In this document: piece after piece, positions 1,033 through 43,710 of the stretch | How positions within the stretch are numbered: position 1 is the stretch's first letter | How the letters are laid out: each line of letters begins with the position of its first letter | NCBI GenBank assembly: GCA_011605725.1 | Contig: JAAOZP010000014.1 | Location: 1 to 64,000, forward strand | Origin: Nitrososphaerota archaeon | GTDB taxonomy: Archaea > Thermoproteota > EX4484-205 > JAAOZP01 | Direction of reading: 5' to 3' | DNA: 64,000 nucleotides | Made by a program: the position numbers and the translations under genes | Notes under the pieces: model-generated | Database searches by the model: none | Seen by the model: the letters and a program-made list of their open reading frames with translations, nothing else | What the model was told of the DNA's origin: nothing

Positions 1033-1107
1033 TACCTAAAACCATTTCACCGTTTAGAATTTAAAAGCTTCCCCAAACCATAGTTCTCAAGCCTGTCAAA
1101 AATGATA

Positions 1108-1161
1108 GATTGAGGCTCCAGTCCCGTAGGGGTTCGTGGGTTCAAATCCCACCCCCCCGCA
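1108..1161 (+). other. 3' half of tRNA-Leu(GAG); probable att site or tRNA remnant
   Basis: TTGAGGC anticodon loop, long variable arm CCCGTAGGG, T arm GTGGG-TTCAAAT-CCCAC and 3' end CCCCGCA. No matching 5' acceptor strand upstream. Confidence 0.75.
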
Positions 1162-1347
1162 CTTTCAGTTTCGTTTATCGTCAACTAACCTCTTCGAGAA
1201 TGGTGTAGAGAGTATTCAGGTCCTGAATACCTTCTTGGAATTGTTCTTCTACCAATTCGAATGGTAAGGGCGTCTGTCTACTTGATGTGTTACTTTTTTG
1301 GGCCTTAAACCTTATATCTGCGTCTTCTTGTATGCTGAAACAGTAGA

Positions 1348-2271: not shown

Positions 2272-2284
2272 TCGCGGGGCTAAA

Positions 2285-3187: not shown

Positions 3188-3251
3188 ATCAACGTTTGCA
3201 CCTACTAGCCTGCGTTAATAACCTTTGCGTTGCCAGAAATAGCAGGCGCTA

Positions 3252-4163: not shown

Positions 4164-4939
4164 CCTTGCTCGTCTCCCTTACTGGGCTTTGCTTTCAACT
4201 TCCCCTTGTGTGCTAAAAAACCATAAAGATACCCGGCGAATACAAAAGGTCTTAATCTTGCTAAAGAGTGTAAAAATGTCCTTGCCAGCCCTTTTCCTTG
4301 AACATATCTTGCCACTCCAGCTGAAAACTGGGCCTTTATCGTTTTCTTTAAAGTTATTTCTCTAATATGATAGGCTTGAGTATTCATCGTAATGCCTATT
4401 CCATATCCGAGTTCCAATGCTTTATCTTGAATATACGTATCTGGAGCTGGCGCATCAGCAAACCCGCCGATTTTATTCAACACATTGTTCCTTATGAGTA
4501 AGGCGCATCCCCTCGGCCTCCTTGAAGGAGAAATTCTGTAAGTTCTTTCCCATAGGGGTAGGAGTCTTCCCAAAAGCGTTTCGCTTCTCGTAACAACCTT
4601 GCCTCCTATGCAAGCGTCTTTTTCTCCTATTTCTGATAATAAGACCTCAAAATAATTAGGCTCCATCACAACATCGGCATCAACTATGGCGTAGAACTCG
4701 GAATTCATTCTCAACCTTGCGAGCTCAAGGTTCTCAGCGTAGGAGTTTTCCCATCTCTTCTCCCTTTTTTCTATCACTTCCACCGGAAACTCCTTCACTA
4801 TTTCTCCAGTTCTATCGGTGCACCTATCTAATACTACAATCACTTTCTCAGGCTTAACCGTCTGAAGAAAAACTGATTCTAAGGCCTTCTTAATATACTT
4901 CTCCTCGTTATGTGCACACATAACAACGCTATATGACAT
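4160..4939 (-). CDS. GT2 glycosyltransferase
   Basis: CAHNEE, LDRCTDRT and VDAD motifs. Confidence 0.9.
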   Translation of the reverse strand: MSYSVVMCAHNEEKYIKKALESVFLQTVKPEKVIVVLDRCTDRTGEIVKEFPVEVIEKREKRWENSYAENLELARLRMNSEFYAIVDADVVMEPNYFEVLLSEIGEKDACIGGKVVTRSETLLGRLLPLWERTYRISPSRRPRGCALLIRNNVLNKIGGFADAPAPDTYIQDKALELGYGIGITMNTQAYHIREITLKKTIKAQFSAGVARYVQGKGLARTFLHSLARLRPFVFAGYLYGFLAHKGKLKAKPSKGDEQG

Positions 4940-5870: not shown

Positions 5871-8135
5871 ATGGCTGCTCCGCAAAGCATCTTCAACACG
5901 GATCCGGAGGGCTTTATCACGCATCCTTTGATTAAAAACGGGAAGGTTCGTGCAAGAAGCTACCAGACGAATATTTCTCTAGCTGCTCTTAAAGGCAATA
6001 CTCTCGTAGTGCTGCCTACTGGACTGGGGAAGACTGTGATAGCTCTCCTAGTGGCTGCTGAAAGGCTTCGGACGGGCAAGGGGGTCTGCGTGGTTTTAGC
6101 GCCGACCAAGCCTCTGGTGGAGCAGCACTATAATTTTTTCAAGGATTGCCTGAACATTGACACGGGTCTTATAGCACTTTGGACAGGGGAGACTCCTGTT
6201 GCGAAAAGGGTTTTCACCGATTACAGGCTTGTATTCGCAACCCCGCAACTCTTCAGGAACGAGATTCTTAAAGGGAATGTTCAGCTTAGCCATGTAGGAC
6301 TCATTGTTTTCGACGAGGCTCATAGGGCTAAAGGAAACTATGCTTACATAACTATTGCTCAACGCTATGTTTCAGAATGCTCGTCCCCATTAATACTGGG
6401 GTTGACAGCCTCGCCGGGCTCCTGTAGGGAGGATATTGAGGAGCTGATGAGAAACCTTGCGATAAAAAACCTGGAGTTCAGGACTCGGGACGACAGGGAT
6501 GTTGCTCCTTACGTTAAGAGGGTTGAGTATCATCTAATACCCGTGCCTCTGAGCCCGCTGGTCAAGGAAGCCAGGTCGCTTATTCAAAGCTTCATCAACG
6601 ACCAGATTAACCAGGCGCTTAAAGCGTTTCCCTGGGAGAAGAAGCCGAGCAGCTTCACGGAGATAACGGAGATGGTTAACGCGATTAAAAGCCGTCCTTT
6701 CCTAGATAAGCCTGAGCTCGTGGAGGCTTTGAAAAATCTGGCTAGGGCAAGATACCTTATAACTGCTCTGGAAAGGCTGGACCTGCTTGGCCCAAAATAC
6801 TTCCTTCAGTTCATAAGCAGAATTGTGGAGAGAACTAGGAAACCCGGAGCGCCGAAATACCTGTCTCAAATAATCGCTGACAAGAGGATCCTGGATGCGG
6901 TGGAGCTTCTTAGGCTTCAGAAGGATAATGCTAAGCTGTCGAAGCTTCTTGAGCTTGCTAAGAAGGAGCTTGAATCCGGAGTCAGGAGGATAATAGTTTT
7001 CGCCAGTTACCGTGCGGCTTCGAAAGACATAGAGAAAGAATTATCCTCCGTGGAAGGCTTAAAAGTCACTAGGCTGGTTGGGCAGGCTTCTAAGATCGGT
7101 GACAAGGGACAGTCCCAGAAGGAGCAGGACGAGGTTCTTTCAAGGTTTAAAAGCGGTGAATTTAATGTTCTGGTGGCGACACAAGTCGGCGAAGAAGGGC
7201 TTGACATCTCCTCTTCAGACACTGTAGTCTTCTACGATAATACTCCGAGCGGCATAAGGTTTGTTCAAAGAGTAGGGAGGACGGGTCGAAACGCACCTGG
7301 GAAAGTATATATCCTGTATTTTCAAGATACTCGCGACGAACAGTACCTTTGGATCGCCCGTAGAAGGGAGAGGAGGATGCTGGAGGAGATGAGAATGATT
7401 CAATCGCGAAACGAATCTAAGAAGGAATCCAACTATGCTTTAACCAGGTTTATTCCTCACGGCGAAGCCTTTGAAGATAAAGTGAGTATAATAGTGGATA
7501 ATAGGGAGTCCGCATGCCCTGTTGTCAACGAGCTTGCTCGGCTTGGAGCCAGAATTACTTTCAGCCAGCTTGAGGTTGGGGATTATGTTCTTTCTGAAAG
7601 AATATGCGTGGAGAGGAAGACGGTCAACGATTTCACGTCATCGATAATAGATTCAAGGCTTTTCCAGCAGGCTAAGCTTCTATCGGATTCCTATGAAATA
7701 CCTGTTTTGCTGATAGAGGGGAGGGATGTGTATGCTCCTTTGAGCAATATTCGTCCCAGCGCGATAAGAGGTGCTATTGCAGCGCTCATAACAGGCTACA
7801 AGATTGTTTTAATCTGGTCGAGAGACGCTAGGGAGTCTGCGGAGCTTATTTACGCAATAGCTTTAAGAGAGCAAAAGGAGCTCAAGAAGCATCTTCAGGT
7901 TAGGGGTGAGAAGAAGCCTGAAACCGTTGCTGACCAGCAAGTCTTCCTTCTTTCCGGCTTACCTCTAGTGGAGAGAACTACGGCTATAAAGCTCTTAAAA
8001 TACTTTAAAACCCCCTTGAGGGTTTTCAATGCAAGCGAACAGGATCTCCAGCAGGTTGAGGGGATAGGCGACATTAAGGCTCGCAGAATAAGGGAAGTCT
8101 TAACTAAGGAGTTTAACGAGGAAGATTTAACCTGA
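5871..8135 (+). CDS. hef: Hef helicase-nuclease (SF2 helicase + ERCC4 + HhH)
   Basis: PTGLGKT, DEAH, QRVGRTGR; C-terminal GDY..ERKT..DF and GIG HhH motif. Confidence 0.9.
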   Translation: MAAPQSIFNTDPEGFITHPLIKNGKVRARSYQTNISLAALKGNTLVVLPTGLGKTVIALLVAAERLRTGKGVCVVLAPTKPLVEQHYNFFKDCLNIDTGLIALWTGETPVAKRVFTDYRLVFATPQLFRNEILKGNVQLSHVGLIVFDEAHRAKGNYAYITIAQRYVSECSSPLILGLTASPGSCREDIEELMRNLAIKNLEFRTRDDRDVAPYVKRVEYHLIPVPLSPLVKEARSLIQSFINDQINQALKAFPWEKKPSSFTEITEMVNAIKSRPFLDKPELVEALKNLARARYLITALERLDLLGPKYFLQFISRIVERTRKPGAPKYLSQIIADKRILDAVELLRLQKDNAKLSKLLELAKKELESGVRRIIVFASYRAASKDIEKELSSVEGLKVTRLVGQASKIGDKGQSQKEQDEVLSRFKSGEFNVLVATQVGEEGLDISSSDTVVFYDNTPSGIRFVQRVGRTGRNAPGKVYILYFQDTRDEQYLWIARRRERRMLEEMRMIQSRNESKKESNYALTRFIPHGEAFEDKVSIIVDNRESACPVVNELARLGARITFSQLEVGDYVLSERICVERKTVNDFTSSIIDSRLFQQAKLLSDSYEIPVLLIEGRDVYAPLSNIRPSAIRGAIAALITGYKIVLIWSRDARESAELIYAIALREQKELKKHLQVRGEKKPETVADQQVFLLSGLPLVERTTAIKLLKYFKTPLRVFNASEQDLQQVEGIGDIKARRIREVLTKEFNEEDLT

Positions 8136-8735
8136 TAAATCAAGATTAAGCTTACTCTCGACGATTTTAGTCACTTCCTCCAATACTTCTTCTAAAGGCT
8201 TATCTGCATCAACCATGATTAATTCTCCGTTTTCAACAAGCTTCAGGTAGACGCTCCTTATCTTTTCAAGGAGAGAAATGTCTTCAAACGGTCCTGAAAC
8301 ATTCTTTCTTCTGAGAGCATTCTCCGGGTCTATGTCAAGATAGATTGCTAAATCAGGCGGAGGAACCCTGTTGTTAATGATCCTAACCCATTCAAGGTCG
8401 TTTAACAATCCTCCTTGGTATGCGATGGAGGAATGAACATACCTGTCTGAAATAACATAATAGCCTTTTTCAAGCCTCTTCCTTATGATCCTTTCATAGT
8501 GTTCAACCCTATCTGCTGCAAACAGTAGTGCTAAATAGTATTGCGGAGCATTCCGTATCCTGGAGGCATGGAGCCTTATCAACGCCCCAACCCGCATGAA
8601 TGTTGGTTCAACAGTATAGAAGCAAGGATAGCCCTTCTCCCTGAGTTTCAAATAGAGGCTTGTCGAAACAGTCGTTTTCCCAGACCCGTCTATCCCCTCA
8701 AAGCTTATATGAGCTCCTTTCTCTCTATTCATCAT
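8127..8735 (-). CDS. tmk: Thymidylate kinase
   Basis: [27 protein letters not shown]; start moved to avoid overlapping the HD gene. Confidence 0.9.
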   Translation of the reverse strand: MMNREKGAHISFEGIDGSGKTTVSTSLYLKLREKGYPCFYTVEPTFMRVGALIRLHASRIRNAPQYYLALLFAADRVEHYERIIRKRLEKGYYVISDRYVHSSIAYQGGLLNDLEWVRIINNRVPPPDLAIYLDIDPENALRRKNVSGPFEDISLLEKIRSVYLKLVENGELIMVDADKPLEEVLEEVTKIVESKLNLDLSG

Positions 8736-8780
8736 ACACCTAAAACTTATTAGAGGCTTTATTAAAGATGTCTTGAAGTT

Positions 8781-10085
8781 TTGAAGTATGTAGCGGAGAT
8801 AAGGGATCCGATACACAAATATATTCACATCACTGATGTAGAGAGAAGTATAATAGATACTCCTGTTTTTCAGAGGCTTAGAAGAATTAAGCAGCTGGCT
8901 GGTGCCCACTTAACTTACCCTGGTGCTGTACACACGCGGTTCCTCCATTCACTGGGCGTAATGCTGACAGCCAGTAAAATATTTTCCCACTTGGCTAACT
9001 ATTTTCCTGAAAAGGTGGATAAGGATGGGCTTCAACTCATAAGGCTAGCCGGCATGCTGCACGATATTGGTCATGGACCTTTTTCACACACGTTTGAAGA
9101 AGTACTTAGTGAGAAGAGGGGTATGACTCATGAGGAAGTGGCGTCAATGCTTATAAGCAGGACTGAGATCGCAGATCTGGTTTCTAAAGCAGGGTTTACG
9201 GCAGAAGAGGTTTCTAGGCTTTCCGTAGGAAAAGACGGTTTGAGAGAAAAGTGGGTTAACCAGATAATCTCCAGCTATTTTGACGCTGATATTCTCGATT
9301 ATCTTCCTAGGGATTCTTTCTTTACAGGTGTTGAATACGGCTTAATAGACTCTGAAAGGATCATAGACTCCATGCTTCTATGGGAAGATTCTCTTGCCAT
9401 CGATGAAGCAGCACTATACGCCTTAGAATCCCTATTCATTGCAAGGTACATGATGTTCAAGGCTGTCTACTTTCATAGGACTGTCAGGGCTGCTGTGATA
9501 ATGCTTTCAAGGGCGATGCTTTTAGTTGACGATGCGGTGGGGCTAACTGGGTTTAAAGACCCGGAGGAATATGTCTCTTTGGATGATCATTCAGTAATCC
9601 AAAGAATACTCTCCATGAATGAAACTACTGAGGAGGCTAAGCTGGCTAAAAGGCTCGTAACCGGATATTTAAACAGATCGTTGTTGAAATCAGTGTTCGA
9701 GATAATGATGCATCACGAGGATCCTCTATATCATTCTTTAATCTCTAGACCCTTGCTGCGAGGAAGTCTTGAGAGTGAAATTGCTGAAGAGGCTGGTTTA
9801 ACTCAAAGTCTGGTTTTCCTAGACCTTCCTTCAGTCCCCTCATTACCGTATCATCCTGACTATAGTGGTGAGAAACATGGTGGCTTCGACGTAAAGATAA
9901 TAGGAAGAGAGGATTCTGAGAGAACGCCTAAATCAGTTTTCGACGTTTCCCCTATGGTTCAATCTCTAAAGGGCTTCATGGGTCTTGCAAGGGTATACAC
10001 TTTTCCAGAACACAGGGAAAGGGTCTTTAAAGCCTCTAAAAGAGTTTTTGGAGAAAGGCCGTACTCTTTTAAAATATCTCTTTGA
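8781..10085 (+). CDS. HD-domain dNTP triphosphohydrolase (SAMHD1-like)
   Basis: QRLRRIKQL, HTRFLHSLG, LHDIGHGPFSH, DADILDYL. Confidence 0.9.
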   Translation: MKYVAEIRDPIHKYIHITDVERSIIDTPVFQRLRRIKQLAGAHLTYPGAVHTRFLHSLGVMLTASKIFSHLANYFPEKVDKDGLQLIRLAGMLHDIGHGPFSHTFEEVLSEKRGMTHEEVASMLISRTEIADLVSKAGFTAEEVSRLSVGKDGLREKWVNQIISSYFDADILDYLPRDSFFTGVEYGLIDSERIIDSMLLWEDSLAIDEAALYALESLFIARYMMFKAVYFHRTVRAAVIMLSRAMLLVDDAVGLTGFKDPEEYVSLDDHSVIQRILSMNETTEEAKLAKRLVTGYLNRSLLKSVFEIMMHHEDPLYHSLISRPLLRGSLESEIAEEAGLTQSLVFLDLPSVPSLPYHPDYSGEKHGGFDVKIIGREDSERTPKSVFDVSPMVQSLKGFMGLARVYTFPEHRERVFKASKRVFGERPYSFKISL

Positions 10086-10096
10086 GTTAAGCAGTA

Positions 10097-10522
10097 TCAG
10101 ACGGGTCTTAGTATCCTGCCTTTCCTAGCGTCGAGAATGATTGTCTCCCCGTTTTTGAACGATGAAAGTATTTTCCGCATATCTGCAAGAACCACCGGTA
10201 TTCCGCCGAGTATTGCTCCGGCAGACACTATGCTGTCCTCCCGTCCGAGTATTACTCCTGAAGGAGCGATTTTTCTTTTAGCAAGACCATATATCACGTA
10301 GGAGCCTACTGTGCTCCCTTTACTGTAAGGGACCGCAAGGATTCTTCTGCATAGGCTTGCCCCTTCTAAGGGATGGTTCTTCTCAACTATAACTCCGGTC
10401 GACGGGTCTACTCCTCCAAAGAAGGATATTGGCTGCCGGCTTATCAGTAAGGCTCCCTTGGCAAAACCCCTGTTAACAATTTTAACCTTTAAAACCATGC
10501 TACTTTCCACCATATTCTTCAA
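10097..10522 (-). CDS. Phosphomevalonate dehydratase small subunit (AcnX swivel, DUF126)
   Basis: ISFFGGVDP.TG, KGSTVGSYV. Confidence 0.85.
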   Translation of the reverse strand: MKNMVESSMVLKVKIVNRGFAKGALLISRQPISFFGGVDPSTGVIVEKNHPLEGASLCRRILAVPYSKGSTVGSYVIYGLAKRKIAPSGVILGREDSIVSAGAILGGIPVVLADMRKILSSFKNGETIILDARKGRILRPV

Positions 10523-11657
10523 TAAACTCGTTTAAAGATTTCAGGGTTGTTTTAAGCTTAAGGGCTCCACGCAGGTAATACGCTGCTTTGACCGAGTTCG
10601 TCAATACATGTACTCTTCCCTTCTTGAGGCTGCAATGCATGACGCAGGAGTCTTTAAATACTCTAACTCCTTTTTCAAAAAGCTCCGTCAGCAAGCTTTT
10701 TCGAAAAGCTTCTGAATAGGTACTCCGGGAGGTGAAAACCCATGCTTCCACAGAGAGCCTGTTTACACTCTCAAGCGCTTCTTGAAAACCCTTAATCTCC
10801 TCCAGAGACATGTGGGGGCAGCCTGTTATGAAAACCAGCTTCTCATCGCGAGAAGACGGGGCTTCTTCAGAAAGATTCCTCCTCTCCTTCTCGAGCTCGC
10901 TTCTATCTAAAACTATTTTTCTCAAAGGTTTTTTAACTCTTAAGAATCCTGGTGTAAGGTTCTCTATCCAAACCATGGGTGCCGCCCCACTGGTGCCGAA
11001 GCCTGCGAGAAGCTGCTTATAGTAAAAAATGTTTCCAGAATTTTTTTTCAGCCTGAGATAGGGTATTTCAGCACCGGCTTTCAATCCCATAACGTATCCG
11101 AGAAGCCCGTAGTCAAGCTCATTCTTAAGCTTACCATCGTATTCGAAAAAAATCCGGGGTTTCCTACCGTTTCGAAGGTGAATACCGGTCCGCGTAGTAT
11201 AACCCAGTATGGCTGAAGCCAGCGCCGTCAAGCTTCCCTCCTTATTTGTTGAAGCGCCTATGATTGAATTCGCGTAAAGCACTGCAGAGCTTTCTGCCCA
11301 AGCTATTTTCTGATTCTTCCTTAAAGGATTGTCGAACAAGTAGGGTGTGCAGGTTAATGATTCTTTCGCCCCAATGTTTTTCAAGCTTCGAACTATTCTC
11401 TCCTGTTTTTCAACAACCTCAGGGTCGCACTCGAAAACTCTGTCGAAATCAACGCATCCAGGGTTTATCGTAGTCCTGACCCTAAACCTTAACCCTGACC
11501 TTCCTAAGTCTTCAAGGAATTCAAGCCCGGCGTCGCCAATGTTCAGATAGGAGATTCCAGAAAGGTGTGCGCTGGATATCTTAACATATTTTTTTCTTCC
11601 CGTCTGCGTCGACTCCAATATTTTTTTAAACATCTCTTTAGTAATATGCGTCTTCAA
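10500..11657 (-). CDS. Phosphomevalonate dehydratase large subunit (AcnX, DUF521)
   Basis: AHLSGISY, TCTPY, AWAESSA, GCPH, DSC. Confidence 0.85.
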   Translation of the reverse strand: MKTHITKEMFKKILESTQTGRKKYVKISSAHLSGISYLNIGDAGLEFLEDLGRSGLRFRVRTTINPGCVDFDRVFECDPEVVEKQERIVRSLKNIGAKESLTCTPYLFDNPLRKNQKIAWAESSAVLYANSIIGASTNKEGSLTALASAILGYTTRTGIHLRNGRKPRIFFEYDGKLKNELDYGLLGYVMGLKAGAEIPYLRLKKNSGNIFYYKQLLAGFGTSGAAPMVWIENLTPGFLRVKKPLRKIVLDRSELEKERRNLSEEAPSSRDEKLVFITGCPHMSLEEIKGFQEALESVNRLSVEAWVFTSRSTYSEAFRKSLLTELFEKGVRVFKDSCVMHCSLKKGRVHVLTNSVKAAYYLRGALKLKTTLKSLNEFIEEYGGK

Positions 11658-12938
11658 CTACATCCTGCTCCTTAAGAAACGATTCCTATCAATCTTAATG
11701 GGGAGGGTTAAGTCTAAGCCCCATTTAGAAGTTACTAATTTCTCTTGATCGCTAGAAGGATCCAATGAGGATCCGCGCATCCCTTCAAAGAAGAAAAATT
11801 TCCGTTTATCCTGAAACCTCGTAGCCAGCGCGAAATCCACATCCTCATAGCTCCCAGGATCTATGTCCTCATCCACTACGATAACTCCTTTCACAGAGCC
11901 ATGCGCCTCCATCACGAGCTTTATAACCTTGAAAGGTTCATCATCACTTTTCTTTGAAATGCTTACGAAGCAGTGGAGCCATCCTCCGGAACCGCTTGAA
12001 AGCCAAACATCCTTAACATCAACATCGTTTTCAACAAGCTTCTCCCTTATTTTGACTTCCGCAGGATATCCCATGAGCAGTTTATGCTCAAGCCCTCCTG
12101 GAAGTATCGCATGGTAAATTGGGTTTTCATTCCAATAGACTTTATCAACCTCTATCACTGGTTGATCCCTAGGTTTATCCGGTAGGCCAAGTATATCGGT
12201 CATCCATTCCCTAGCAGTCAGGTCTATCCTTATTCTTCCTTCGAAAACGTACTCGGACTCGACGGGTACTGGCAGGTTGCCACCGTCGAAATACGTGACC
12301 TCGAGCGGACTACTTTTTAATGCTCCTGCATAATCTATCTCTGAAACATCTTTCGGCAACTGTGTTGAAGCAGACAGGATTATGTGTGCAGGAGTGCCGA
12401 TTAGAACAGCCACTTTCAAATCATTGCCAGCAGCCTTCTGCTTCATGAATATCTGGTGCAAATGTCTTCCCTCAACCATTCTTACAGCAAATATGTTTGA
12501 ACCAAGATGGAGAAGCCTGTGCACCGACATGTTGACAACACCATCTTCAGGGTCTCTGGCAACTATTACGGAGCTAGTAATATACTTTCCAGCATCATTA
12601 CTGTAGTATTTCAACAAGGGTAGTCTTGAAATACTAGTTGAGTCGGATGTTCCATTCCAATACCAGTTTCTCTCCACCGGTTTGAAAAGGCACCGCTTAG
12701 CCTTGGAAACATGGTTGAACAAGCCTCCTTTCCCAGTTTTCATAAGCCTCTCTACTCTGCCACGGCTAGAGTAGAGGTTTGCTATCAACGGGTCTTTGCC
12801 CTGAAAGGGTTCTTTAAACAGAATGGCTCGTGGCTCGCTTTCCCTTATTACGATAGGGACCTCGGACTCAAAGTGTTTTTTCGAATCTAGAATAATGTCG
12901 TCGCCAAGCTCTTTCACATAGTCCCCTATCCTTACCAT
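11658..12938 (-). CDS. UbiD-family decarboxylase (likely anhydromevalonate phosphate decarboxylase)
   Basis: D.GKYITS, NMSVHR, VDEDID, GSSLDPS; clustered with the AcnX genes. Confidence 0.85.
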   Translation of the reverse strand: MVRIGDYVKELGDDIILDSKKHFESEVPIVIRESEPRAILFKEPFQGKDPLIANLYSSRGRVERLMKTGKGGLFNHVSKAKRCLFKPVERNWYWNGTSDSTSISRLPLLKYYSNDAGKYITSSVIVARDPEDGVVNMSVHRLLHLGSNIFAVRMVEGRHLHQIFMKQKAAGNDLKVAVLIGTPAHIILSASTQLPKDVSEIDYAGALKSSPLEVTYFDGGNLPVPVESEYVFEGRIRIDLTAREWMTDILGLPDKPRDQPVIEVDKVYWNENPIYHAILPGGLEHKLLMGYPAEVKIREKLVENDVDVKDVWLSSGSGGWLHCFVSISKKSDDEPFKVIKLVMEAHGSVKGVIVVDEDIDPGSYEDVDFALATRFQDKRKFFFFEGMRGSSLDPSSDQEKLVTSKWGLDLTLPIKIDRNRFLRSRM

Positions 12939-13031
12939 GCTGTTCCTATGTGATTATGCCATGATTAAAAAGGTTCCATGAAGATTGGAAAAGAGTTTAA
13001 TACGTTGAAAACATTTTGTTAAGGTAAAAGG

Positions 13032-13703
13032 TTGAATATGCGGTTTGAAGAATTGGCGATAAGCCTGAGCGGGAAGACAATTCTTCTCTACGGAGAATAC
13101 TCCAGGGTTTTTCCATTCATACTCAGCCTTATTAGGGTGAATAAAGATTCTACACTGCTTTTCTTAGACGGTTTTAACGCGAGAACGATGGTTAAAGAAG
13201 CGTATTCTCTCAGCCCCCAGGATCTCTCTAGGGTTGTTTTCTCCAGTTTTGAAAACCTTGTGGAGCTTGATAAAGCGCTTGAACAATCTGAAACAATGAT
13301 TCTTAAAAAGGGCTCTTTTAAGCTTCTTATAGCAGGCTCCTTGCCGGACGCGTATCTGCGTGAAATATCGTTGCACGACTCTTCCTCCCACTCTAACATT
13401 CTTTATCTTCTCAACAAGATACTTGCTTTCTTCTCATTCCTCTCAAAGAAATACGGTTGCATCGGGATTCTTACTGGCCCAGGCGAAGGCTTGAACAGTT
13501 CAGCTAGCATTCCGGCGAGAAGAATCTTTCTCTACTGGGTGGACTATGTTTTAGAGCTGCGTAAATGCAGCGTTGGCGGGACGCTTGGAGAGCTAACTGG
13601 GAAAACCGGGGTTAAAACTAAACTTTGTATACTTCCGGAAGGATTTAAAGAAGGCGGTGAAGTATTGGAGTGTAATGAGAATGCTTGTTCAAGAAATGTT
13701 TGA
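13032..13703 (+). CDS. Hypothetical protein, possibly a degenerate RecA/RadB fold
   Basis: GKTILLYGE..LLFLDG strand pattern but no GKT P-loop after YGE. Confidence 0.45.
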   Translation: MNMRFEELAISLSGKTILLYGEYSRVFPFILSLIRVNKDSTLLFLDGFNARTMVKEAYSLSPQDLSRVVFSSFENLVELDKALEQSETMILKKGSFKLLIAGSLPDAYLREISLHDSSSHSNILYLLNKILAFFSFLSKKYGCIGILTGPGEGLNSSASIPARRIFLYWVDYVLELRKCSVGGTLGELTGKTGVKTKLCILPEGFKEGGEVLECNENACSRNV

Positions 13704-14172
13704 ACTAGGAATCAGAGGGCTGATTTTCTATTCTTCAGCCTACGCTGCCAACGCTTCCGCTCTCTTATTCAAGGGAAGGAGGCAAATAGACTTGGGAAAA
13801 GTTTTCATAGATGGTAAACCTATTTTTGGAAGCGGCAAGACGTTTAAAGGCTTCTTCCTCGGCCTAGTCGTTGGGGTTTTCACAGGAAGCATGGTAGGTA
13901 ATTCAGTTATAGTGTCGTTTTTAACGAGTCTCGGAGCATTGCTAGGAGACCTGATGGGGGCTTTCATTAAAAGAAGGATTTCGATAAAACCAGGGGATCC
14001 TATGCCTGTTCTCGATCAGTTTGACTTTATGCTGGGTGCAACACTTTTGTCGCAGGCTTGGAATCATCTGGATCCGCGCGCGATCATCATAATCATGGCT
14101 TTAACACCAGCAGTACACTTAATTTCAAACTTCTTAGCGTTTCTTCTTAAAATAAAGAAAGTGCCATGGTGA
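13681..14172 (+). CDS. carS: CDP-archaeol synthase
   Basis: AYAANA, GSGKTFKG, GDL.GAFIKRR, LDQFDF, KKVPW. Confidence 0.9.
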   Translation: MLVQEMFELGIRGLIFYSSAYAANASALLFKGRRQIDLGKVFIDGKPIFGSGKTFKGFFLGLVVGVFTGSMVGNSVIVSFLTSLGALLGDLMGAFIKRRISIKPGDPMPVLDQFDFMLGATLLSQAWNHLDPRAIIIIMALTPAVHLISNFLAFLLKIKKVPW

Positions 14173-14184
14173 AGCCTACGCCCT

Positions 14185-14631
14185 CTACCTCAGAGCGGAT
14201 GTCTTAAGGTAATCCAGCCCCATTATCATCAGCAGAGATATTGTTAAGAGGGTTATTCCAAACATTATGAACATTTTCTTCTGAGAAACAGACCTTGACC
14301 CCCTGACTAAGAGAATCACTCCCATGCCTGCGAAAAGATAGGAGATAAACACGTAAACCATCTCTAGAATTGTCTGTGAGAGATAGTCTCCCAATGCCCT
14401 AGGAATATAGAAGTATACGCCGTAACCGTATGACGATAAATCTATCATCCATGGGGTTGCTTGAAAATATGTGATTACGTATGTTGCTCCAGACAGGAAC
14501 ACCCCCATAGCAATGGTTAAGCCTGTCAAGATTAACATGTTCACGATTTCTCCTCTACGGATTCCACTCGTCTTCTCACTCCATTTCTTTATTTTATCCA
14601 TCAAGTATTCTGGCAACAGTAGCGGATTCAT
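14185..14631 (-). CDS. Membrane protein resembling OST3/OST6/OSTC (DC2) oligosaccharyltransferase subunits
   Basis: Three TM segments; SGATY..P..SQTILE..F..GMGVILL..R pattern. Confidence 0.55.
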   Translation of the reverse strand: MNPLLLPEYLMDKIKKWSEKTSGIRRGEIVNMLILTGLTIAMGVFLSGATYVITYFQATPWMIDLSSYGYGVYFYIPRALGDYLSQTILEMVYVFISYLFAGMGVILLVRGSRSVSQKKMFIMFGITLLTISLLMIMGLDYLKTSALR

Positions 14632-14722
14632 ATACTTGAGGATTCGGCGTGAAATAGAATTTAAGCATTTCCTTTTTTAACTTTTAAAAGGTTTTTAAAT
14701 AGTTAGGGAGTGGAGAATCCTG

Positions 14723-15010
14723 ATGAAAACCAGTTCTGAGAAATGCATAATATGCGGGAGAAACGTTGAAACCGGGTCTAAACCATCTTTTTGCAGTCTT
14801 CACTTGGAAGCGTATAGAAATATTGTTAGGAACTATGAGGCCTGGAGGAGTGCATACGGTGGTTTAACTCCGGAGGAGTTTCTCAGAAGGCTGGAGAACA
14901 ATGATTATACGGGTAAATGGGTTAAGGAGGTTGTGCGCGTCATGCTTTCAAACCACGGTCTACTCCAGTTTTTTCTGAACGATTTGTCTTACTCGAGCAG
15001 GAGGGGTTGA
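14723..15010 (+). CDS. Small protein with CxxC..CxxH Zn-binding motif
   Basis: CIICG..FCSLH. Confidence 0.6.
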   Translation: MKTSSEKCIICGRNVETGSKPSFCSLHLEAYRNIVRNYEAWRSAYGGLTPEEFLRRLENNDYTGKWVKEVVRVMLSNHGLLQFFLNDLSYSSRRG

Positions 15011-34007: not shown

Positions 34008-34103
34008 CGGGCCCGGCGGGAATTGAACCCGCAACATCTGGGTTAAAAGCCCAGCGCTCTAACCAGGCTGCTCTCCACACATGTGGATTTGAGCTACGGG
34101 CCC
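34008..34103 (-). tRNA. tRNA-Lys(TTT) with ~21-nt non-canonical D-arm intron
   Basis: GGGCCCG/CGGGCCC acceptor; CTGGG-CTTTTAA-CCCAG anticodon arm; hairpin insert at ~34068-34090. Confidence 0.9.
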
Positions 34104-37282: not shown

Positions 37283-37421
37283 GGGGCCATAGTCTAACCA
37301 GGCAGGACGGCGGGCTCCAGCCAAACGCAAGCCAGCGATCCCGGCGAGGGAGATGAGGAAAGGTTGGAGCTGGGAATATGAGAGACACCCGTGAATGGGC
37401 GTTCAAATCGCCCTGGCCCCA
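37283..37421 (+). tRNA. tRNA-Trp(CCA) with ~66-nt intron at 37/38 (37321-37386)
   Basis: GGGGCCA/TGGCCCC acceptor; GCGGG-CTCCAG..A-CCCGT anticodon arm; GGGCG-TTCAAAT-CGCCC T arm. Confidence 0.9.
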
Positions 37422-37574: not shown

Positions 37575-37784
37575 ATGCCAAAAAGCCTCCATATACGTCT
37601 GAAGTCCGTAGTGGGGAAGGAAGACCTCAATAGTGGCGAATTAAGGTCTGTCGAGGAGAAATTGACAAGGTTTTCATGCAGAAGAATCTTATTCGTGCCG
37701 AAGAAGGAGAAATTGCCTAAGGAACCCAATGGGATAGAAGTATGGGACGTTGACGCAATCCTCAATCGTGAACAGGAGAACTAG
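37575..37784 (+). pseudogene. C-terminal remnant, possibly of an archaeal ATPase/nuclease fusion
   Basis: ..EEKLTRFSCRRILFVP..GIEVWD resembles such C-termini from memory; no N-terminus. Confidence 0.35.
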
Positions 37785-37952
37785 AAATTATCGCGTGTTA
37801 GCGTGCTTAATCTGCCCGAACTCTCCCTGTCCTCGACTACCAGCAGTGGATTTCCACGTTTTGAGAGTATTTCCTATCGGCTTGATTCCATTTGGATACA
37901 TTTTTCTAATTTCATCTATTCCTTTAGTAACTGTCTAACAAAAAGTTTAATT

Positions 37953-38591
37953 CTATAATACTTCGAGATTAAACCAGAATCTTGCTTTAGGATACTTCTT
38001 GTGGATTTCCAGGGCTTTCATGAAGAAGTCGCCGAATTTTTTGCCACGCCAGTTCATGGTTTCTATTGTACGATTCATGTTTTCCTCGAGCGTTGACTCT
38101 TTATGTGAAAACCATCGGAGGAGCCTCTTGGCGACCTCCATGTCCTGGGGGTCCTCCTTCGAGAGCAGAGTCTGCGACGCGAGACGGTTTATCTCGTCCT
38201 GCACCTCTTTCAAATCCAGTATCTCGCATGGCCAGAGCGCACGCTTCCCCCTTCCTCTTAGCAACCTCACGAACCTCGTCCTCACTTTTATCTTCTCCCT
38301 CAGGGAGTTGAACAGCCGGTAGGTCTCCTCAAAGTAGGAGAACGGTAGATCATAACCGAAGAATAGCGACATCGATAGCGATGCTTCGCGTATTTCCCGT
38401 AGATCTTCGTCATTATGGATGATATGGCATGTATGAATAAGCATTGGTATGTATTTGAAGCCCTTGAGCTGGAGAGCCTTGACATCGCTCCAGCCAAACC
38501 ATAAGCCCTCCTTATCAAGCCGCTCGATCTCCTCCCTAGCTTTTCGCGAACACCTGCTTGAGGCCTTTATGCCGAGGACGAGTTGCGTCAT
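37953..38591 (-). CDS. Putative immunity protein, copy D
   Basis: Paralog family (LQ.KG.KY.P, ALW, L..EDP.D, KKYP.ARFW); starts 3 nt after a nuclease-tip remnant. Confidence 0.7.
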   Translation of the reverse strand: MTQLVLGIKASSRCSRKAREEIERLDKEGLWFGWSDVKALQLKGFKYIPMLIHTCHIIHNDEDLREIREASLSMSLFFGYDLPFSYFEETYRLFNSLREKIKVRTRFVRLLRGRGKRALWPCEILDLKEVQDEINRLASQTLLSKEDPQDMEVAKRLLRWFSHKESTLEENMNRTIETMNWRGKKFGDFFMKALEIHKKYPKARFWFNLEVL

Positions 38592-38594
38592 GCC

Positions 38595-38749
38595 TCAACC
38601 TCCAGTCCACTCCACACCTTTAATGAAAATCTTAAGCACATCCCTATTGCTTTTATAAAGCTCTTTAAGATACTCGAAGAGGGCTTTTGCATTCAGGGAC
38701 TGAGGCTCATCGTAGAAGCGGTACATCAGGATTGCATTCCCCCTCTTTT
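38595..38749 (-). pseudogene. Nuclease-tip remnant D (last ~50 codons)
   Basis: Translates NAILMYRFYDEPQSLNAKALFEYLKELYKSNRDVLKIFIKGVEWTGG*. Confidence 0.85.
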
Positions 38750-39349
38750 TTATAGCAATATGACATACCACCAGAACCTTGCACTGGGGTATTTTTTAGA
38801 AATGTCTATTAGATTCAGGAAGTAGCTACCGATATCCCTTACACATTTGTTTTCGAATTCTATCTCACGGTCGATTTTCTCCTCTAGTTCCATTTCCTCG
38901 TCCTTAAGAGAGCTGTGAGCAAGGAGCCTCATAGCCATCTTCCTATCATCAGGGTCCTCCTTAAACAACAAGGGATGCGTTACGAGCCTATGAACCTCGT
39001 TCTGAACCTCCTTAAGCTTAAGGACGTCGTTGGACCAGAGAGCATATTCCGCTCTACCCTTTGGTCTGACGATTCTAACATCGATTCTCTGCTTCAACTC
39101 CCTAAACGTTTTAATGATCTCCTCAAAGTAAGAAGGAGGAAGGCCGATGTAAGAGGATAGGAAATCTGAGGGCTCCTCGGCGATAAAGGATGCAGTATAC
39201 ACTATAGTCGGTACATACTTCAAGCCCTTATACTGCATGAGTTCTGTCTCAATCCAAAAGAAGCTCTTGCTCTTATACTGCTTAAGCTCTTTCCTAGCTT
39301 TCCACGGAGACTTGCTCGAAATCCTCAGCTTGAGATAGTAATTGCTCAT
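38750..39349 (-). CDS. Putative immunity protein, copy C
   Basis: Same paralog family; follows remnant C. Confidence 0.7.
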   Translation of the reverse strand: MSNYYLKLRISSKSPWKARKELKQYKSKSFFWIETELMQYKGLKYVPTIVYTASFIAEEPSDFLSSYIGLPPSYFEEIIKTFRELKQRIDVRIVRPKGRAEYALWSNDVLKLKEVQNEVHRLVTHPLLFKEDPDDRKMAMRLLAHSSLKDEEMELEEKIDREIEFENKCVRDIGSYFLNLIDISKKYPSARFWWYVILL

Positions 39350-39353
39350 CCCG

Positions 39354-39665
39354 CTAGCCTCCAGTCCATTCTATGCCATTGATAAAGATTCTCAATCTTC
39401 CAGGATGCCTTCTACTTAGCTCCTCAAGGTAATCGAACAGCCCCATTGCATCCATGCTCCGAGGCTCCTCATAAAATCGATACATCAAAACTGAGCCCTC
39501 TTTCTCAGCAACATATAGGTATACATCAGCATCTTTTTTCAAGTCTTCAAGACCACCTGTTTCATATCCATGCTTAACCTCAATACTTTTCTTAAATCGC
39601 CTACATAATCAAAGAAACGGTCTATTTTCCGTAATCCTTCTGCCTTGGCCTCGAAACGGTTTCTC
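39354..39665 (-). pseudogene. Nuclease-tip remnant C (frameshifted, ~100 codons)
   Basis: FFDYVG in one frame, IEVKHGYETG..LMYRFYEEP..GIEWTGG* in another. Confidence 0.85.
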
Positions 39666-40272
39666 ATCCGGGGGTTTCTACGTAAAGCCAGAACTTCGCA
39701 GTAGGATATTTTTTCGAAATATCTATCAGCTTCAAGAAATAGCTGGCGAAGTCTTTGCTCCACTTATTTTCAGATTCTATCACCTTGTCTATTTTATCTT
39801 CAAAAGTTAACTTCTCTTTTCCATGCCAATGAATATGGGGAAGAAGCTTTTCAGCTATCTTCCTGTCCTCAGGGTCTTCCCTCGATAGCAAATCGCCGTT
39901 AGCAAGCCAATTTACCTCATCCTGGACCTTCCTAAGGCTGAGGACGATGTTGGGCCAGAGGGCATAATCTGCCCTGCTCCATGACCTAACGATTCTAACA
40001 TTAACCTTCTGCCTTAATTCCTCAAATACCTTAATAACTTCTTCGAAGTGGGAGAGCGATAAGCCGATCCTAGAGGGCAAAAACTCAGAAGGCCTTTTAG
40101 GCACTCCGCTTGCAGCATAGATTATTGTCGGCATATACTTTAAGCCCTTTAACTGCAGTACCTCAATATCAGTCCACCAAATGGGGCGTTTATACTTAAC
40201 CTCCTTAAGCTCCTTCCTAGCCTCCCGCGGGGTCTTGCTTGAAACCCTTATCCTTAGGTAGTAGTGGCTCAT
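39664..40272 (-). CDS. Putative immunity protein, copy B
   Basis: Same paralog family; ATG abuts the stop of tip B. Confidence 0.7.
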   Translation of the reverse strand: MSHYYLRIRVSSKTPREARKELKEVKYKRPIWWTDIEVLQLKGLKYMPTIIYAASGVPKRPSEFLPSRIGLSLSHFEEVIKVFEELRQKVNVRIVRSWSRADYALWPNIVLSLRKVQDEVNWLANGDLLSREDPEDRKIAEKLLPHIHWHGKEKLTFEDKIDKVIESENKWSKDFASYFLKLIDISKKYPTAKFWLYVETPG

Positions 40273-41014
40273 CTAACCTCCCTTCCACTCCACACCTTTA
40301 ATGAAGATTCTTAACCTCTCAGGATGCTCCTTACTTAGCTCTTTAAGGTAATTGAATAACCCTATTGCGTTTTCGCTCTGAGGCTCATCGTAGAACCGGT
40401 ACATTAAGACCCAACCATTTTTCTCGGCAATGTACAGATATATATCGGAATCCTTTTTTTAAGTCTTCGAGGTCCCCTGTTTCATATCCATGCTTCACCT
40501 CAATGATCGCCTCATCCCCATCCTTTGTCACTCCTTTATAATCGAAAAATACGCATTCTTTGTTAAATTTTTTCTTCTCAGCCTCAATAAAATCATATTT
40601 ATGCTCCATCTCTGTAATCTTTCCACCCTCGCTTTCAAAGCGTATCTTCTCATAAAACATTGCTATAAAGTGTGCAGGTGCATTGGACGCCCTCCTAGGT
40701 ATTTGTTCATTTATGCCTATAATCGTTAGAGGAATATCTCCATCATCCTCATGTTTGACGAATAGCACATCCTTCAATAAAATATCCAGAACTTCGACCT
40801 CAGTGTGATATTCGAGGTAAATTATATTACGATAGTTCCCCCCTGTTTTCACGATTTCTGAAGTAACCTTCACCGACCTGCCGTCATCCCCTAGGGCTAG
40901 CCTGAACCCGATTGCGTCCCCGCTCTTAAGCGGTATTTCAAGGTTCACGATACTGCCCTTGGGCTTCTTGAAGCCAGCGTCCCCGACCTCGAAGCTCCTA
41001 GACGCTAGCGCGCG
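40273..41014 (-). pseudogene. Nuclease tip B (PD-(D/E)xK-like), 5'-truncated, +1 frameshift in an A7 run
   Basis: HFIAMFYEK..FFDYKG..IIEVKHGY; removing one A at 40454-40460 restores ..LMYRFYDEP..GVEWKGG*. Confidence 0.8.
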
Positions 41015-41017
41015 CTA
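41006..41017. repeat. Perfect 12-bp palindrome TAGCGCGCGCTA; variants at 3240, 28356, 28792, 33365, 33849, 37789, 49498, 51288, 60699
   Basis: Read directly; lies where the reading frame of tip B begins. Confidence 0.75.
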
Positions 41018-41291
41018 TCTTTTGGCCAAAAATATTAGTGAAGTCTCCCTAGCTCAATGACGAGAGCACCCGCTTCCCTGAAGCTTAACACCCCACGAAC
41101 CCTAACCTCCTCCAGAAACTTTCAAACAGTATCTTGGTTCCTCAGGCTGTTCAGGCCTGCTCTAACTCCAACGTTAAGATCCTTAATAGGAATTTTACTG
41201 ACCTCTCACTCTCTTCATCAGTACTAATACTGGTTTGAATAGTATCCTGTAGGGATACCATATGCTAATCTTTCATCCTTAAACAATTTCT

Positions 41292-42050
41292 ATGGTATCA
41301 TTAGAGCTAATTAATTTGATGAAGAGTTTCTTGATGGTGGTTTCGTTGAAACAGCAACATAGAGCCTTTTTATTGTTAGGAGAATATGGGTGTATAAAAA
41401 GGGTTTGCAGATGTTGTTTTAGATTGTTGCTATATGCGTTTGAAGACAGGTCGGTGAAGGTTACCCCGGAGGTCGCGTGGGGAGAAGGCAACTACGATGA
41501 AATGATTAGTCTGAAGTACGAGCCCGAGTTCGAAATTATCGAGCATGATAGTAGCGTCACGCTGAAGGATGTCCTTATAATGAAATACAAAGATGCGGAG
41601 GGCGAGCATTTAACGATACGTGGCATAAACGAAAAGGTTCCAAAAAGCGCACTTGATAAACCTGAGCACTTCATAGCGATGTACTATGAGAAAATGCGTT
41701 TCGAAGAAATGGGTGGAAAAATTACGAATGTAGAGTATCCGCATGAAGTATATACGAACTGCATCTTCGATTACGTGGGTGAATGGAAGGGTTATAAAAC
41801 GTATGTTGAAGTTAAGCACGGGTATGAAGGAGGTTCAGACGAGGAGTTAAAGAATCAGGCCAACAAGTATTTAAGCGTCGTAAAGGAGGAGGTTGCGAAA
41901 GGTGTTAATGCGATCCTTATGTATCGATTCTACGATGAGCCTCAGTCCCTGAATGCAAAAGCCCTCTTCGAGTATCTTAAAGAGCTTTATAAAAGCAATA
42001 GGGATGTGCTTAAGATTTTCATTAAGGGTGTTGAGTGGGCTGGAGGGTAG
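41292..42050 (+). CDS. Nuclease tip A (PD-(D/E)xK-like putative toxin domain); true start uncertain
   Basis: HFIAMYYEKMRFE..IFDYVG..YVEVKHGY..GVEWAGG; homology to B from ~41443. Confidence 0.75.
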   Translation: MVSLELINLMKSFLMVVSLKQQHRAFLLLGEYGCIKRVCRCCFRLLLYAFEDRSVKVTPEVAWGEGNYDEMISLKYEPEFEIIEHDSSVTLKDVLIMKYKDAEGEHLTIRGINEKVPKSALDKPEHFIAMYYEKMRFEEMGGKITNVEYPHEVYTNCIFDYVGEWKGYKTYVEVKHGYEGGSDEELKNQANKYLSVVKEEVAKGVNAILMYRFYDEPQSLNAKALFEYLKELYKSNRDVLKIFIKGVEWAGG

Positions 42051-42053
42051 AGA

Positions 42054-42658
42054 ATGACAACTTTCTCCCTACGCATAGAGATTTCGAGTAGGTGCTCACA
42101 AAGGGCCAGGACGGAGCTTCAGCAGATTGAGAGCGTGTGGTTCCACTGGAGCGATGTCAAGGCTCTCCAGCTCAAGGGCTTCAAATACATACCGATGATT
42201 ATTTACACGGGCGACCGCCTTCAAGACAGCCCATTGGAATACAAGGAATCGTTCATCGGCTCTCCTCTTAGCTTACCGCTTCCCTATTATGAGGAGATCT
42301 ACATGCTGTTTAACTCTATGAGGGAAAAATTGAAAGTGAGGATTGTGAGGGCAATAGAAGGAAGGGGGATGCGTGCGCTCTGGCCATGCGAGATACTGGA
42401 TTTGAAAGAGGTGCAGGACGAGATAAACCGTCTCGCGTCGCAGACTCTGCTCTCGAAGGAGGACCCCCAGGACATGGAGGTCGCCAAGAGGCTCTTTGGG
42501 CGCCCTCTCGGTAAAGAGCCAACACCCGAGGACATAAACCGCATAATAGATGGTACAAACTGGAGTGGCAAAAAGTTCGGCGACTTCTTCATGAAAGCCC
42601 TGGAATCCACAAGAAGTATCCTAAAGCAAGATTCTGGTTTAATCTCGAAGTATTATAG
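42054..42658 (+). pseudogene. Putative immunity protein, copy A; 1-nt deletion near 42604 replaces the C-terminus
   Basis: ctggaatccacaag versus ctggaaatccacaag in copy D; native TAG at 42656-42658. Confidence 0.75.
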
Positions 42659-42762
42659 AAGTGAAAGCAAATTGATGAGGAAAAGAGAATGTGCGTCCAT
42701 GCGAATGCTTCCCCCTGTAGGAACAGCACCTTTTACCCGAACGCTGAAAGATTTTTGTTGCC

Positions 42763-43710
42763 TCAGAATACTTTGCCAGCCTTCTCCAGGTTCTCCAAGC
42801 GCTGCCAGTTCCACTCAATCCAGTTCTTAAGCCTCTGCAATGTCTCCGCGTTCTTAGGATCAAGAAGATGCCTCATCATCCTTTGAATCTTAAGATATTC
42901 CTCAACCGGCGTAGGCTTCGAAACCCTATAGTTAATCCTAAGCTGACCGTCCTCAATCTCGTAAATCGGAAACAGCCGGGTCTCAACAGCCATCCTCGAA
43001 ACCTTGACCGTCAAATGAGGATCATAACGCCAGCCGAACTGGCACGGAGCAAGAACATGCAGAAACGCAGGACCCTGCTCACTATAGTTAACAGCCTTCC
43101 TAATCTTATTAACCATGTCACGCCAAAGCCACAGCGTCGCAGTAGCAGCATAAGGAATATGGTGCGAAGCAACAATAGCAATTAAATCCTTCTTGTTTTC
43201 CTGCTTACCTGGAATCACCTTCCCAGCAGGGCTCGTCGTGGTCGCAGCACCCAGAATAGATGCTCCTGACCTCTGAATGCCCGTATTCATGTATGCACAA
43301 TTATCATAACATAAATATATAATTTTATCTAATCTTTCTAGTGCTCCTGATATTGCTCCTAGTCCTATGTCGAATGTTGCGCCGTCTCCTCCGAGTGCTA
43401 TGACTGGTATTTTTCTTGCTCTTCCTTCTGCTGAGAGTTTTTCGAGTGCTGCTGCTATGCCTGCTGCTACTGGCGCGTTGTTCTGGAAGAGCACGTGGAC
43501 CCATGGTGTTTTCCACGCGGAGTACGGGTAGATTGTTGTTCCTACTTCTACGCAGCCTGTTGCGTTTACGATTATTGCTTCTGGTACGGCTAGTGTAATG
43601 ATTTTCGCGGTTATTGCTGGCCCGCATCCTGCGCATAGTCTGTGTCCCGGTCTGAATTTTGATTCTTCAGGTAGGTCGGATATTTTCGCCACTGGGTTTA
43701 GCTTGCTCAT
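42763..43710 (-). CDS. porB: 2-oxoacid:ferredoxin oxidoreductase beta subunit
   Basis: CAGCG, ATGC, GGDG..DIG, YMNTGIQRS. Confidence 0.9.
   Translation of the reverse strand: MSKLNPVAKISDLPEESKFRPGHRLCAGCGPAITAKIITLAVPEAIIVNATGCVEVGTTIYPYSAWKTPWVHVLFQNNAPVAAGIAAALEKLSAEGRARKIPVIALGGDGATFDIGLGAISGALERLDKIIYLCYDNCAYMNTGIQRSGASILGAATTTSPAGKVIPGKQENKKDLIAIVASHHIPYAATATLWLWRDMVNKIRKAVNYSEQGPAFLHVLAPCQFGWRYDPHLTVKVSRMAVETRLFPIYEIEDGQLRINYRVSKPTPVEEYLKIQRMMRHLLDPKNAETLQRLKNWIEWNWQRLENLEKAGKVF

Follow-up and report, generated by a model that had tools for sequence, protein, structure and literature searches.

A probable bank of orphan toxin and immunity cassettes in the archaeal lineage Brockarchaeota

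Loci of contact-dependent growth inhibition (CDI, cdiBAI) and Rhs loci carry orphan C-terminal toxin (CT)/immunity modules, and when simple recombination loads a distal orphan, the immunity genes in between are lost (Poole et al. 2011, PMC3150448). Polymorphic toxin systems were found in few archaea, chiefly methano- and haloarchaea, by Zhang et al. 2012 (PMC3482391), and the archaeal systems of Makarova et al. (2019, mBio) are predicted to act by contact-dependent delivery, without experimental characterization in the account that PMC8416519 (2021) gives of them. Here we discuss a locus in a 64,000-nucleotide stretch of contig JAAOZP010000014.1 (assembly GCA_011605725.1; the whole stretch is called the window below) in which four nuclease-like C-terminal ends, or tips, each with a small partner gene behind it, stand without the large carrier protein that bears such tips elsewhere. 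The comparisons below make it probable that this array is a bank of orphan toxin/immunity cassettes belonging to a polymorphic toxin system of Brockarchaeota, and the sequences place the system outside CDI, Rhs, and VARTIG alike. Literature searches for Brockarchaeota together with toxins, or for inversion of orphan arrays, returned nothing relevant, the 2019 archaeal survey lying outside their reach. Coverage of this family by that survey is unlikely because Brockarchaeota were described only in 2021, in a paper without mention of toxins (PMC8065059).

The likeness to CDI and Rhs lies in a large, apparently secreted protein with an exchangeable C-terminal putative toxin and a small gene right behind it, in start-less tip fragments that begin at a conserved boundary motif, and in orphan modules that sit on full carriers in other strains. 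Some CdiA-CTs also have a PD-(D/E)xK fold (4zqu, 4g6u, and 4g6v are among the matches of our tip model). Unlike CDI and Rhs, the host is an archaeon, GRSVKVT serves as the boundary motif, the four cassettes all represent alleles of a single tip family and a single partner family, and one cassette is inverted, so that recombination flips instead of deleting. CdiB, haemagglutinin, VENN, YD, and RHS-core (DPxG) had no match in the carrier or the accessory gene in Pfam/NCBIfam. With the Tox-REase polymorphic toxin systems (PMC3482391) the locus shares a predicted restriction-endonuclease-fold tip with E, D, and ExK, cassette exchange, and linked candidate immunity genes, but tip and partner have no Pfam Tox-REase or Imm match; unlike the archaeal cases of that study, the system is expanded in a hot-spring TACK lineage and has a trunk and an accessory protein of no known family. 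VARTIG of Thermococcales (PMC8416519) is likewise a large surface protein of archaea whose C-terminus recombines and whose downstream genes vary, but its variable end is an immunoglobulin (Ig) domain, whereas the end modeled here is an alpha/beta nuclease fold with a dedicated soluble partner.

Six-frame translation and self-comparison place four modules between an intron-containing tRNA-Trp and porB. The earlier note, which was made from the sequence alone, had described four tip ends, each followed within 0-4 nt by a ~200-aa paralog, and this description holds: the genome (2.2 Mb) has exactly four copies of the motif LMYRFY.EP...G.EW.GG-stop, every one inside the window, the partners are paralogs of 199-212 aa that are mutually 38-67% identical, and the gaps from tip stop to partner ATG are 3 nt (A), 0 nt (B), 4 nt (C), and 3 nt (D). 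GGAGG, from the tips' final Gly-Gly codons, stands 4-8 nt ahead of every partner ATG. The picture of plain repeats had to be given up, however. The modules are not tandem; module A lies on the plus strand and modules B, C, and D on the minus strand, with A and D forming an inverted repeat of 790 nt at 80% identity that contains identical blocks. The features of the array are as follows, with G denoting genomes (G000 is the source genome), C contigs, L compared loci or contigs, and X1-X4 sequencing runs, and with dN/dS as the ratio of nonsynonymous to synonymous change.

37953..38591, minus strand: partner D, 212 aa, predicted immunity protein; dN/dS 0.43 against L045 and 0.24 against L039
38595..38749, minus strand: tip D remnant, last ~50 codons only, without the catalytic D/ExK
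38750..39349, minus strand: partner C, 199 aa, predicted immunity protein; dN/dS 0.16-0.17 against L005 and L045
39354..39663, minus strand: tip C remnant, starting right after the partner B stop, without a start codon; frameshift between FDY and EVK
39664..40272, minus strand: partner B, 202 aa, sharing 97% identity with the gene that follows the intact carrier-borne tip B of L045; model confidence (predicted local distance difference test, pLDDT) 93.9
40273..41005, minus strand: tip B, preceded by ~40 codons of carrier trunk; an A-run near 40453-40460 carries a +1 frameshift
40863..40886, minus strand: junction box coding GRSVKVT, end of trunk and start of tip B
41441..42050, plus strand: tip A, a beta-rich linker and a complete PD-(D/E)xK-type nuclease domain in an open frame
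42054..42658, plus strand: partner A, with a -1 frameshift at ~42604; it shares 81% identity with the gene that follows the carrier-borne tip A of G002
Right arm 41907..42660, left arm 37951-38738, no strand: A/D inverted repeat, 80% identical overall, identical blocks of 30-100 nt; crossover sites in other populations

Tip A begins at the GRSVKVT box (41441-41464), a 24-nt element common to tips A and B, and has possible starts at GTG 41454 and ATG 41502 and no signal peptide. The 252-aa open reading frame (ORF) upstream of its box is a reading of noncoding operon-leader DNA. Three of the four tips had been called broken; this is so for B, C, and D, but the supposedly intact tip A also lacks a carrier in the window, its homology starting at the junction box at 41441. 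The motif FDY...EVK, reported for tips A-C, is present in A and B and split by the frameshift in C, a tip that is broken also in L043, L045, and L005. In tip D the final Gly-Gly codons (GGAGG) form a Shine-Dalgarno-like site before partner D. The tip model (pLDDT 87) consists of the beta-rich linker and an alpha/beta domain, and its best structural match is BstEII (Z 8.4, root-mean-square deviation (rmsd) 3.5, 131 residues aligned), followed by NucS (Z 7.7), XisH (7.3), CdiA-CT (6.1), and TseT (5.9), with SfsA and Can2/Card1 also found. The top matches are PD-(D/E)xK nucleases throughout, and H78, G93, E100, D112, E125, K127, and E131 are invariant in the tip alignment. The tip is likely a PD-(D/E)xK nuclease, since the match list is coherent and agrees with the motif despite middling scores. 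No member of the alignment matches the Pfam Tox-REase or Imm models at E<=0.1, only faint matches to PDDEXK_1/2 being returned; a remote kinship with the named families may exist. The tip query found no match in 15 other genomes of the phylum.

Three partners had been called intact, and B, C, and D are indeed open; in partner A a frameshift (AAA>AA, ~42604) replaces the last 17 residues. The partner model (pLDDT 94) is soluble and mostly helical, with a small sheet formed by N- and C-terminal strands, and because the frameshift removes the C-terminal strand, partner A would be inactive in the window. None of the partners has a membrane or signal segment. Their dN/dS is 0.09-0.43, with dS up to 0.25 as compared with none, against L045, in a flanking housekeeping gene; as dN/dS is low and synonymous change exceeds that of the housekeeping gene, the data fit partner alleles that were imported and then kept under purifying selection. 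The proposed rule of broken tips and intact partners is better called a tendency, since partner A is frameshifted in the window, run X1 has a partner C broken by a 1-nt deletion at 38899, and most other populations have an intact tip B.

The partner family has 84 matches among 1.84 billion cluster representatives, those checked being archaeal, without a taxon name, or Brockarchaeota-like; it occurs in 20 of the 26 genomes of the order, and its profile found no relative in viral contigs. The partners have no significant Pfam/NCBIfam match, Imm models included. Fold searches gave no clear match either (best YfbM of E. coli, Z 4.3, rmsd 4.4, 127 aligned; Foldseek E 0.86; Atlas TM <=0.36), and ESM Atlas features hint at DUF1877/DUF7691 below 0.9, as a lead only. 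Weak fold matches of this kind are leads and do not by themselves establish a new fold. Complex prediction of in-frame tip B (from L043) with partner B scored 0.00, which counts neither way. More lone or broken partner genes of the source genome lie at C11:99890-100498 (L002) and C4:58429-59652 (L003); the former is near EF-2 and thermosome genes, and the same site holds partner relatives in L101 and L103.

The full-length carrier had been expected elsewhere, and a search for long proteins ending in the tip had been proposed. The search found them, so the tip does occur at the C-terminus of larger proteins. In a sister species (G002/L106), a ~1,480-codon carrier frame beside the same por operon and porB ends in tip A (85% identical to tip A of the window) and is followed by partner A (81%). 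In a conspecific-level strain (L045, which matches the window at 96% identity along the tRNA-Trp flank), an intact tip B ends a frame of at least 668 aa at the same tRNA-Trp locus and is followed by B, C, and D. The L106 carrier is 5'-truncated and the L045 carrier is cut by the contig end; L107 has the same trunk type with a signal peptide, its sequence ending before the tip, and a further search turned up no shorter carriers related to L045. The source genome itself has a 1,707-codon carrier frame ending in this tip family, followed by a partner, at C19:9185-14308. One extra G near 9190 splits off its signal-peptide part; in the 1,806-aa G002 ortholog the two are joined. Complete carriers (1,400-1,830 aa) have a hydrophobic signal-like segment at the start and hydrophobic segments in the center, and carriers are preceded by a ~400-aa accessory gene whose product has a signal segment at the N-terminus and a membrane helix at the C-terminus. 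Such operons or their remnants number 5-13 in each of several genomes. Sequence comparison thus shows the full locus to be a three-gene operon of an accessory protein, a predicted secreted carrier with an exchangeable tip, and a predicted soluble ~200-aa partner. The note's impression of an unrecognized toxin/immunity family agrees with trunk and partner families that have no library match: tip, partner, carrier, and accessory protein found nothing significant in Pfam, NCBIfam, PADLOC, or PDB sequence searches.

Other remains of such operons were seen in passing. On C19 (L001), an accessory gene, carrier, and partner operon of the same tip family spans 7672-14902, and positions 1-4820 and 6424-7200 hold a second carrier, whose unrelated PD-(D/E)xK tip precedes two paralogs from a different downstream family, as well as an orphan tip end with a partner that is 99% identical to a cognate partner in G002. 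In another species, at the same porB site (L042, G016:C1, 4977-5945), the first ~200 codons of the accessory gene are fused in frame to the pre-tip region; the operon has thus undergone an independent internal deletion there.

Polymorphism was assessed on the 41 carriers with a closed 3' end. They fall into five tip groups, and similar trunks end in different PD-(D/E)xK tips. In group 1 all 16 tips are followed by one downstream family, in group 2, to which the window belongs, 14 of 16 are followed by the window's partner family, and group 4 tips are followed by a third downstream family. The downstream family tracks the tip group with three exceptions, and tip-partner gaps are mostly -8 to +6 nt. 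Exceptions to the pairing were seen in L065 and L093, where tips related to the window's family precede a ~470-aa gene of another family, and L073, where a different tip group precedes a distant member of the window's partner family. The clearest swaps are in G007, whose three carriers have trunks that are 72-85% identical, unrelated tips, and unrelated downstream genes. Trunk identity and tip identity are uncorrelated; within group 2, multiple alignments give a correlation of partner with tip identity (rho 0.37, Mantel p 0.001) and not of partner with trunk identity (rho -0.06). On shared trunks, a tip is exchanged jointly with its downstream gene.

These data bear on two other explanations of the operon. 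Barstar is an intracellular inhibitor of barnase, and by analogy the carrier could be a housekeeping surface nuclease that degrades extracellular DNA for feeding, biofilm, or virus defense, with the partner as a safety inhibitor or chaperone and the orphans as debris. The signal peptide, the nuclease fold, and the conserved partner core would all fit; 5-13 paralogous operons per genome, the swapping of unrelated tips, along with matching downstream genes, on a single trunk, and purifying selection on partners without tips would go unexplained, and we regard this explanation as improbable. A self/non-self recognition or adhesion module like VARTIG, with the variable end as a recognition tag and no active toxin, would share a large secreted protein, a variable C-terminus, and variable downstream genes with its model (PMC8416519), but is very unlikely given that the end is a predicted nuclease fold with invariant catalytic-type residues and no Ig domain, and that the partners lack membrane or signal segments.

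A polymorphic toxin system accounts better for the orphans. The proposal that the array banks immunity alleles against kin toxins gains support from orphan partners that match cognate partners of other lineages' carriers (B 97% in L045; A 81% in G002); the orphan partner on C19 is 99% identical to the partner of the C18 carrier of G002, as compared with 66% for the source genome's own C19 partner. Tests of the genomic hallmarks of polymorphic toxin systems turned up an export region (in complete carriers, the carrier of the window being deleted), variable tips, a predicted toxin-type fold, a linked gene that changes with the tip, and loadable orphan cassettes. We infer toxicity, binding, neutralization, secretion, delivery, and expression from this pattern. 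The carrier would be displayed on the cell surface and would deliver its nuclease into neighboring related cells, the partner would bind and block the tip, and strains would gather further cassettes of tip end plus partner. Such tips would then decay to their last ~50 codons, probably kept because the partner's ribosome-binding site and homology for recombination lie there, with the partners remaining under purifying selection. The array would in this way act both as an antidote bank against toxins of related strains and species and as a store of spare tips loadable onto a carrier at the GRSVKVT box, and the stretch itself is probably what remained of a polymorphic toxin locus after its delivery genes were lost.

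Several findings weigh against this interpretation. A whole carrier that bears exactly tip A or B together with a signal peptide was not seen, and in the 1,707- and 1,806-aa carriers Pfam/NCBIfam gave no match, with no protease, pre-toxin domain, or known release motif detected. The structural Z-scores of the tip model are middling, 8.4 at best, and the nuclease motif has no Pro ahead of the Asp. The partner core (KGLKYIP, WP.E) is conserved across alleles beyond what many immunity proteins show, and partners decay too (A in the window, C in X1, others on C4 and C11). A cruder measure of the tip-partner correlation, made on pairwise alignments, fell short of significance (rho 0.17), and the genomes compared are kin and not independent; for both reasons the single clear swaps outweigh the correlation.

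Strain comparison, which rests on assembled contigs, shows that the array is reshuffled among populations; every run that contains at least half of the stretch is a hot-spring metagenome. Array content is E-F-B-C-D in L005, B-C-G and an A remnant in L044, B-C-A in L043, B and a C remnant in L046, and B-C-D behind a carrier in L045. In X1 and X2, which come from two studies, both reciprocal junctions (38007-38037/42575-42606, on opposite strands) are found at locus depth; they result from a crossover within the A/D repeat that flipped the array in two independent metagenomes. Both hybrid partners appear in frame in the inverted state. In L043 the crossover lies inside the LMY codons, in X3 a joint at the GRSVKVT box sets tip A behind a trunk remnant, and partner B points to porB in L046 and to tRNA-Trp in L045.

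The head-to-head layout is not an artifact, because a single X2 contig of 3,253 nt spans 38697-41948. An assembly that stitched together strain variants of one cassette, with sequencing errors as frameshifts, would suit a metagenome-assembled genome with near-identical A/D blocks, and the tRNA-side tail of partner D matches that of A more closely here than in X1-X4, so that local consensus mixing is possible. Against this stand that contig, independent JGI contigs that carry B-C-D in that order, the recurrence of the A7 allele of tip B in X4 and of the AA allele of partner A in X3, and flanking housekeeping genes without a single-base indel against L045, so that an artifact, already largely refuted, is extremely unlikely. 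Partner D is a mosaic with partner A (long identical blocks), and its tRNA-side tail (37946-38007), which equals the partner A tail here and differs by several bases in X1-X4, could stem from a recent gene conversion or from such mixing during assembly.

In shufflons, inversion sets which C-terminal cassette follows a constant region, and recombinase-linked arrays of orphan immunity genes are known. The present locus resembles both in that inversion changes the C-terminal cassette and orphan candidate immunity genes stand in an array, and differs in having crossovers at several points in long homology and no linked site-specific recombinase. A programmed reversible switch, with the inverted cassette and a slippery A-run selected to change or turn off the toxin and keep immunity, would account for both orientations among populations with reciprocal junctions (X1, X2; also L045 versus L046), for the A-run alleles of tip B (A7 in the window and X4, the in-frame A6 in L043, L045, X1, and X3, and A8 in X2), and for an operon leader and array that stand head-to-head in the window and L005. 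General recombination is the simpler cause, because crossover points vary, no recombinase is linked, and both orientations were not seen within one sample (contigs only). The window holds no recombinase and no carrier left for switching; the genome (93% complete) has one tyrosine recombinase, on C17, and no serine resolvase was found. A programmed switch is accordingly rather unlikely. Under the cassette-bank reading, homologous recombination between paralogous cassettes would swap alleles and make chimeric partners, and with cassette A facing the other way a crossover would invert the array and delete none of the intervening immunity genes.

The earlier note did not mention that A faces the other way, nor did it mention the inversion, the junction box, or a (GC)n deletion scar. 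Two further features belong to the loss of the carrier.

41006..41017, no strand: 12-bp palindrome TAGCGCGCGCTA, exactly where the carrier gene is cut; missing from uncut parents
41383..41440, plus strand: noncoding leader, found elsewhere ahead of the accessory gene in carrier operons; 92% identical to L005 and 83% to C1

Accessory gene and trunk are read as deleted because this leader is fused directly to the tip A box. At 41006 a contig of run X1 runs on into carrier sequence. The palindrome also marks other carrier cut points in L005 (2789) and L106 (9487, 9746) and partner cut points in L046 (722) and L044 (2523). The genome has 28 copies against 0.16 expected, two of them in long ORFs against a background of 71%, and its core GCGCGCGC has 229 copies genome-wide against 35 expected. 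Counts of TAGCGCGCGCTA across the genus run from 0 to 35, with 26-35 in some congeners and 0 in half. The palindrome is a candidate scar of a joining or transposition process, by which marked deletions would remove carriers; its cause is a matter separate from the toxin-array finding. A broader scheme would join all of these parts into lineage-specific contact killing in Brockarchaeota, with an operon head-to-head with its orphan array, the tip switched by reversible inversion, all immunity genes kept, A-run slippage as an off switch, and (GC)n-scar joining that prunes old carriers. We consider this scheme doubtful.

Surveys before 2021 found few archaeal polymorphic toxin systems, and these of bacterial type; for the archaeal ones the discussion in PMC8416519 speaks of prediction without test. 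The system here has trunk, accessory protein, and partner families without library match and occurs as many operons per genome across a hot-spring archaeal genus, which speaks for warfare among archaeal kin with proteins of unnamed families. Natural tip/partner alleles of the locus (A, B, E, and C19 types) are small and soluble and would suit a specificity matrix in E. coli, its tips are likely thermostable nucleases with new inhibitors, and the locus provides population-level evidence on how an immunity bank may be gained, shuffled by inversion, and lost.

The flanks of the variable locus and one fragment within it complete the description.

37283..37421, plus strand: tRNA-Trp (CCA) with an intron in the anticodon arm, from sequence and fold; left flank of the variable locus
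41078..41257, minus strand: gene fragment with an intact paralog on contig C5 (74% nt)
42763..43710, minus strand: porB, at the end of the pyruvate oxidoreductase operon; flanks the variable locus on the right

The array was correctly placed 3' of tRNA-Trp, which ends ~530 nt ahead of it. This tRNA folds into acceptor, D, and T arms and is present in all 17 genomes of the genus that were searched; neither ARAGORN nor Rfam reported it. Its intron of ~65 nt carries a box-C-like element. An integrated element that targets the tRNA is unsupported, repeat search and self-comparison of the window having found no duplicated tRNA 3' end (att site). A sigma-70 promoter and terminator scan was at chance level, such models being unsuited to archaea. 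Directly past tRNA-Trp lies a 69-aa ORF (37575-37784) without Pfam/NCBIfam match, possibly a gene remnant, and just past it, near 37795-37808, a degenerate GCGTG/CGCG motif. The gene of the fragment at 41078..41257 looks like one for an EVE-domain protein. On the minus strand at 34016-34069, a partial tRNA match in Rfam with none from ARAGORN is probably another intron-containing tRNA.

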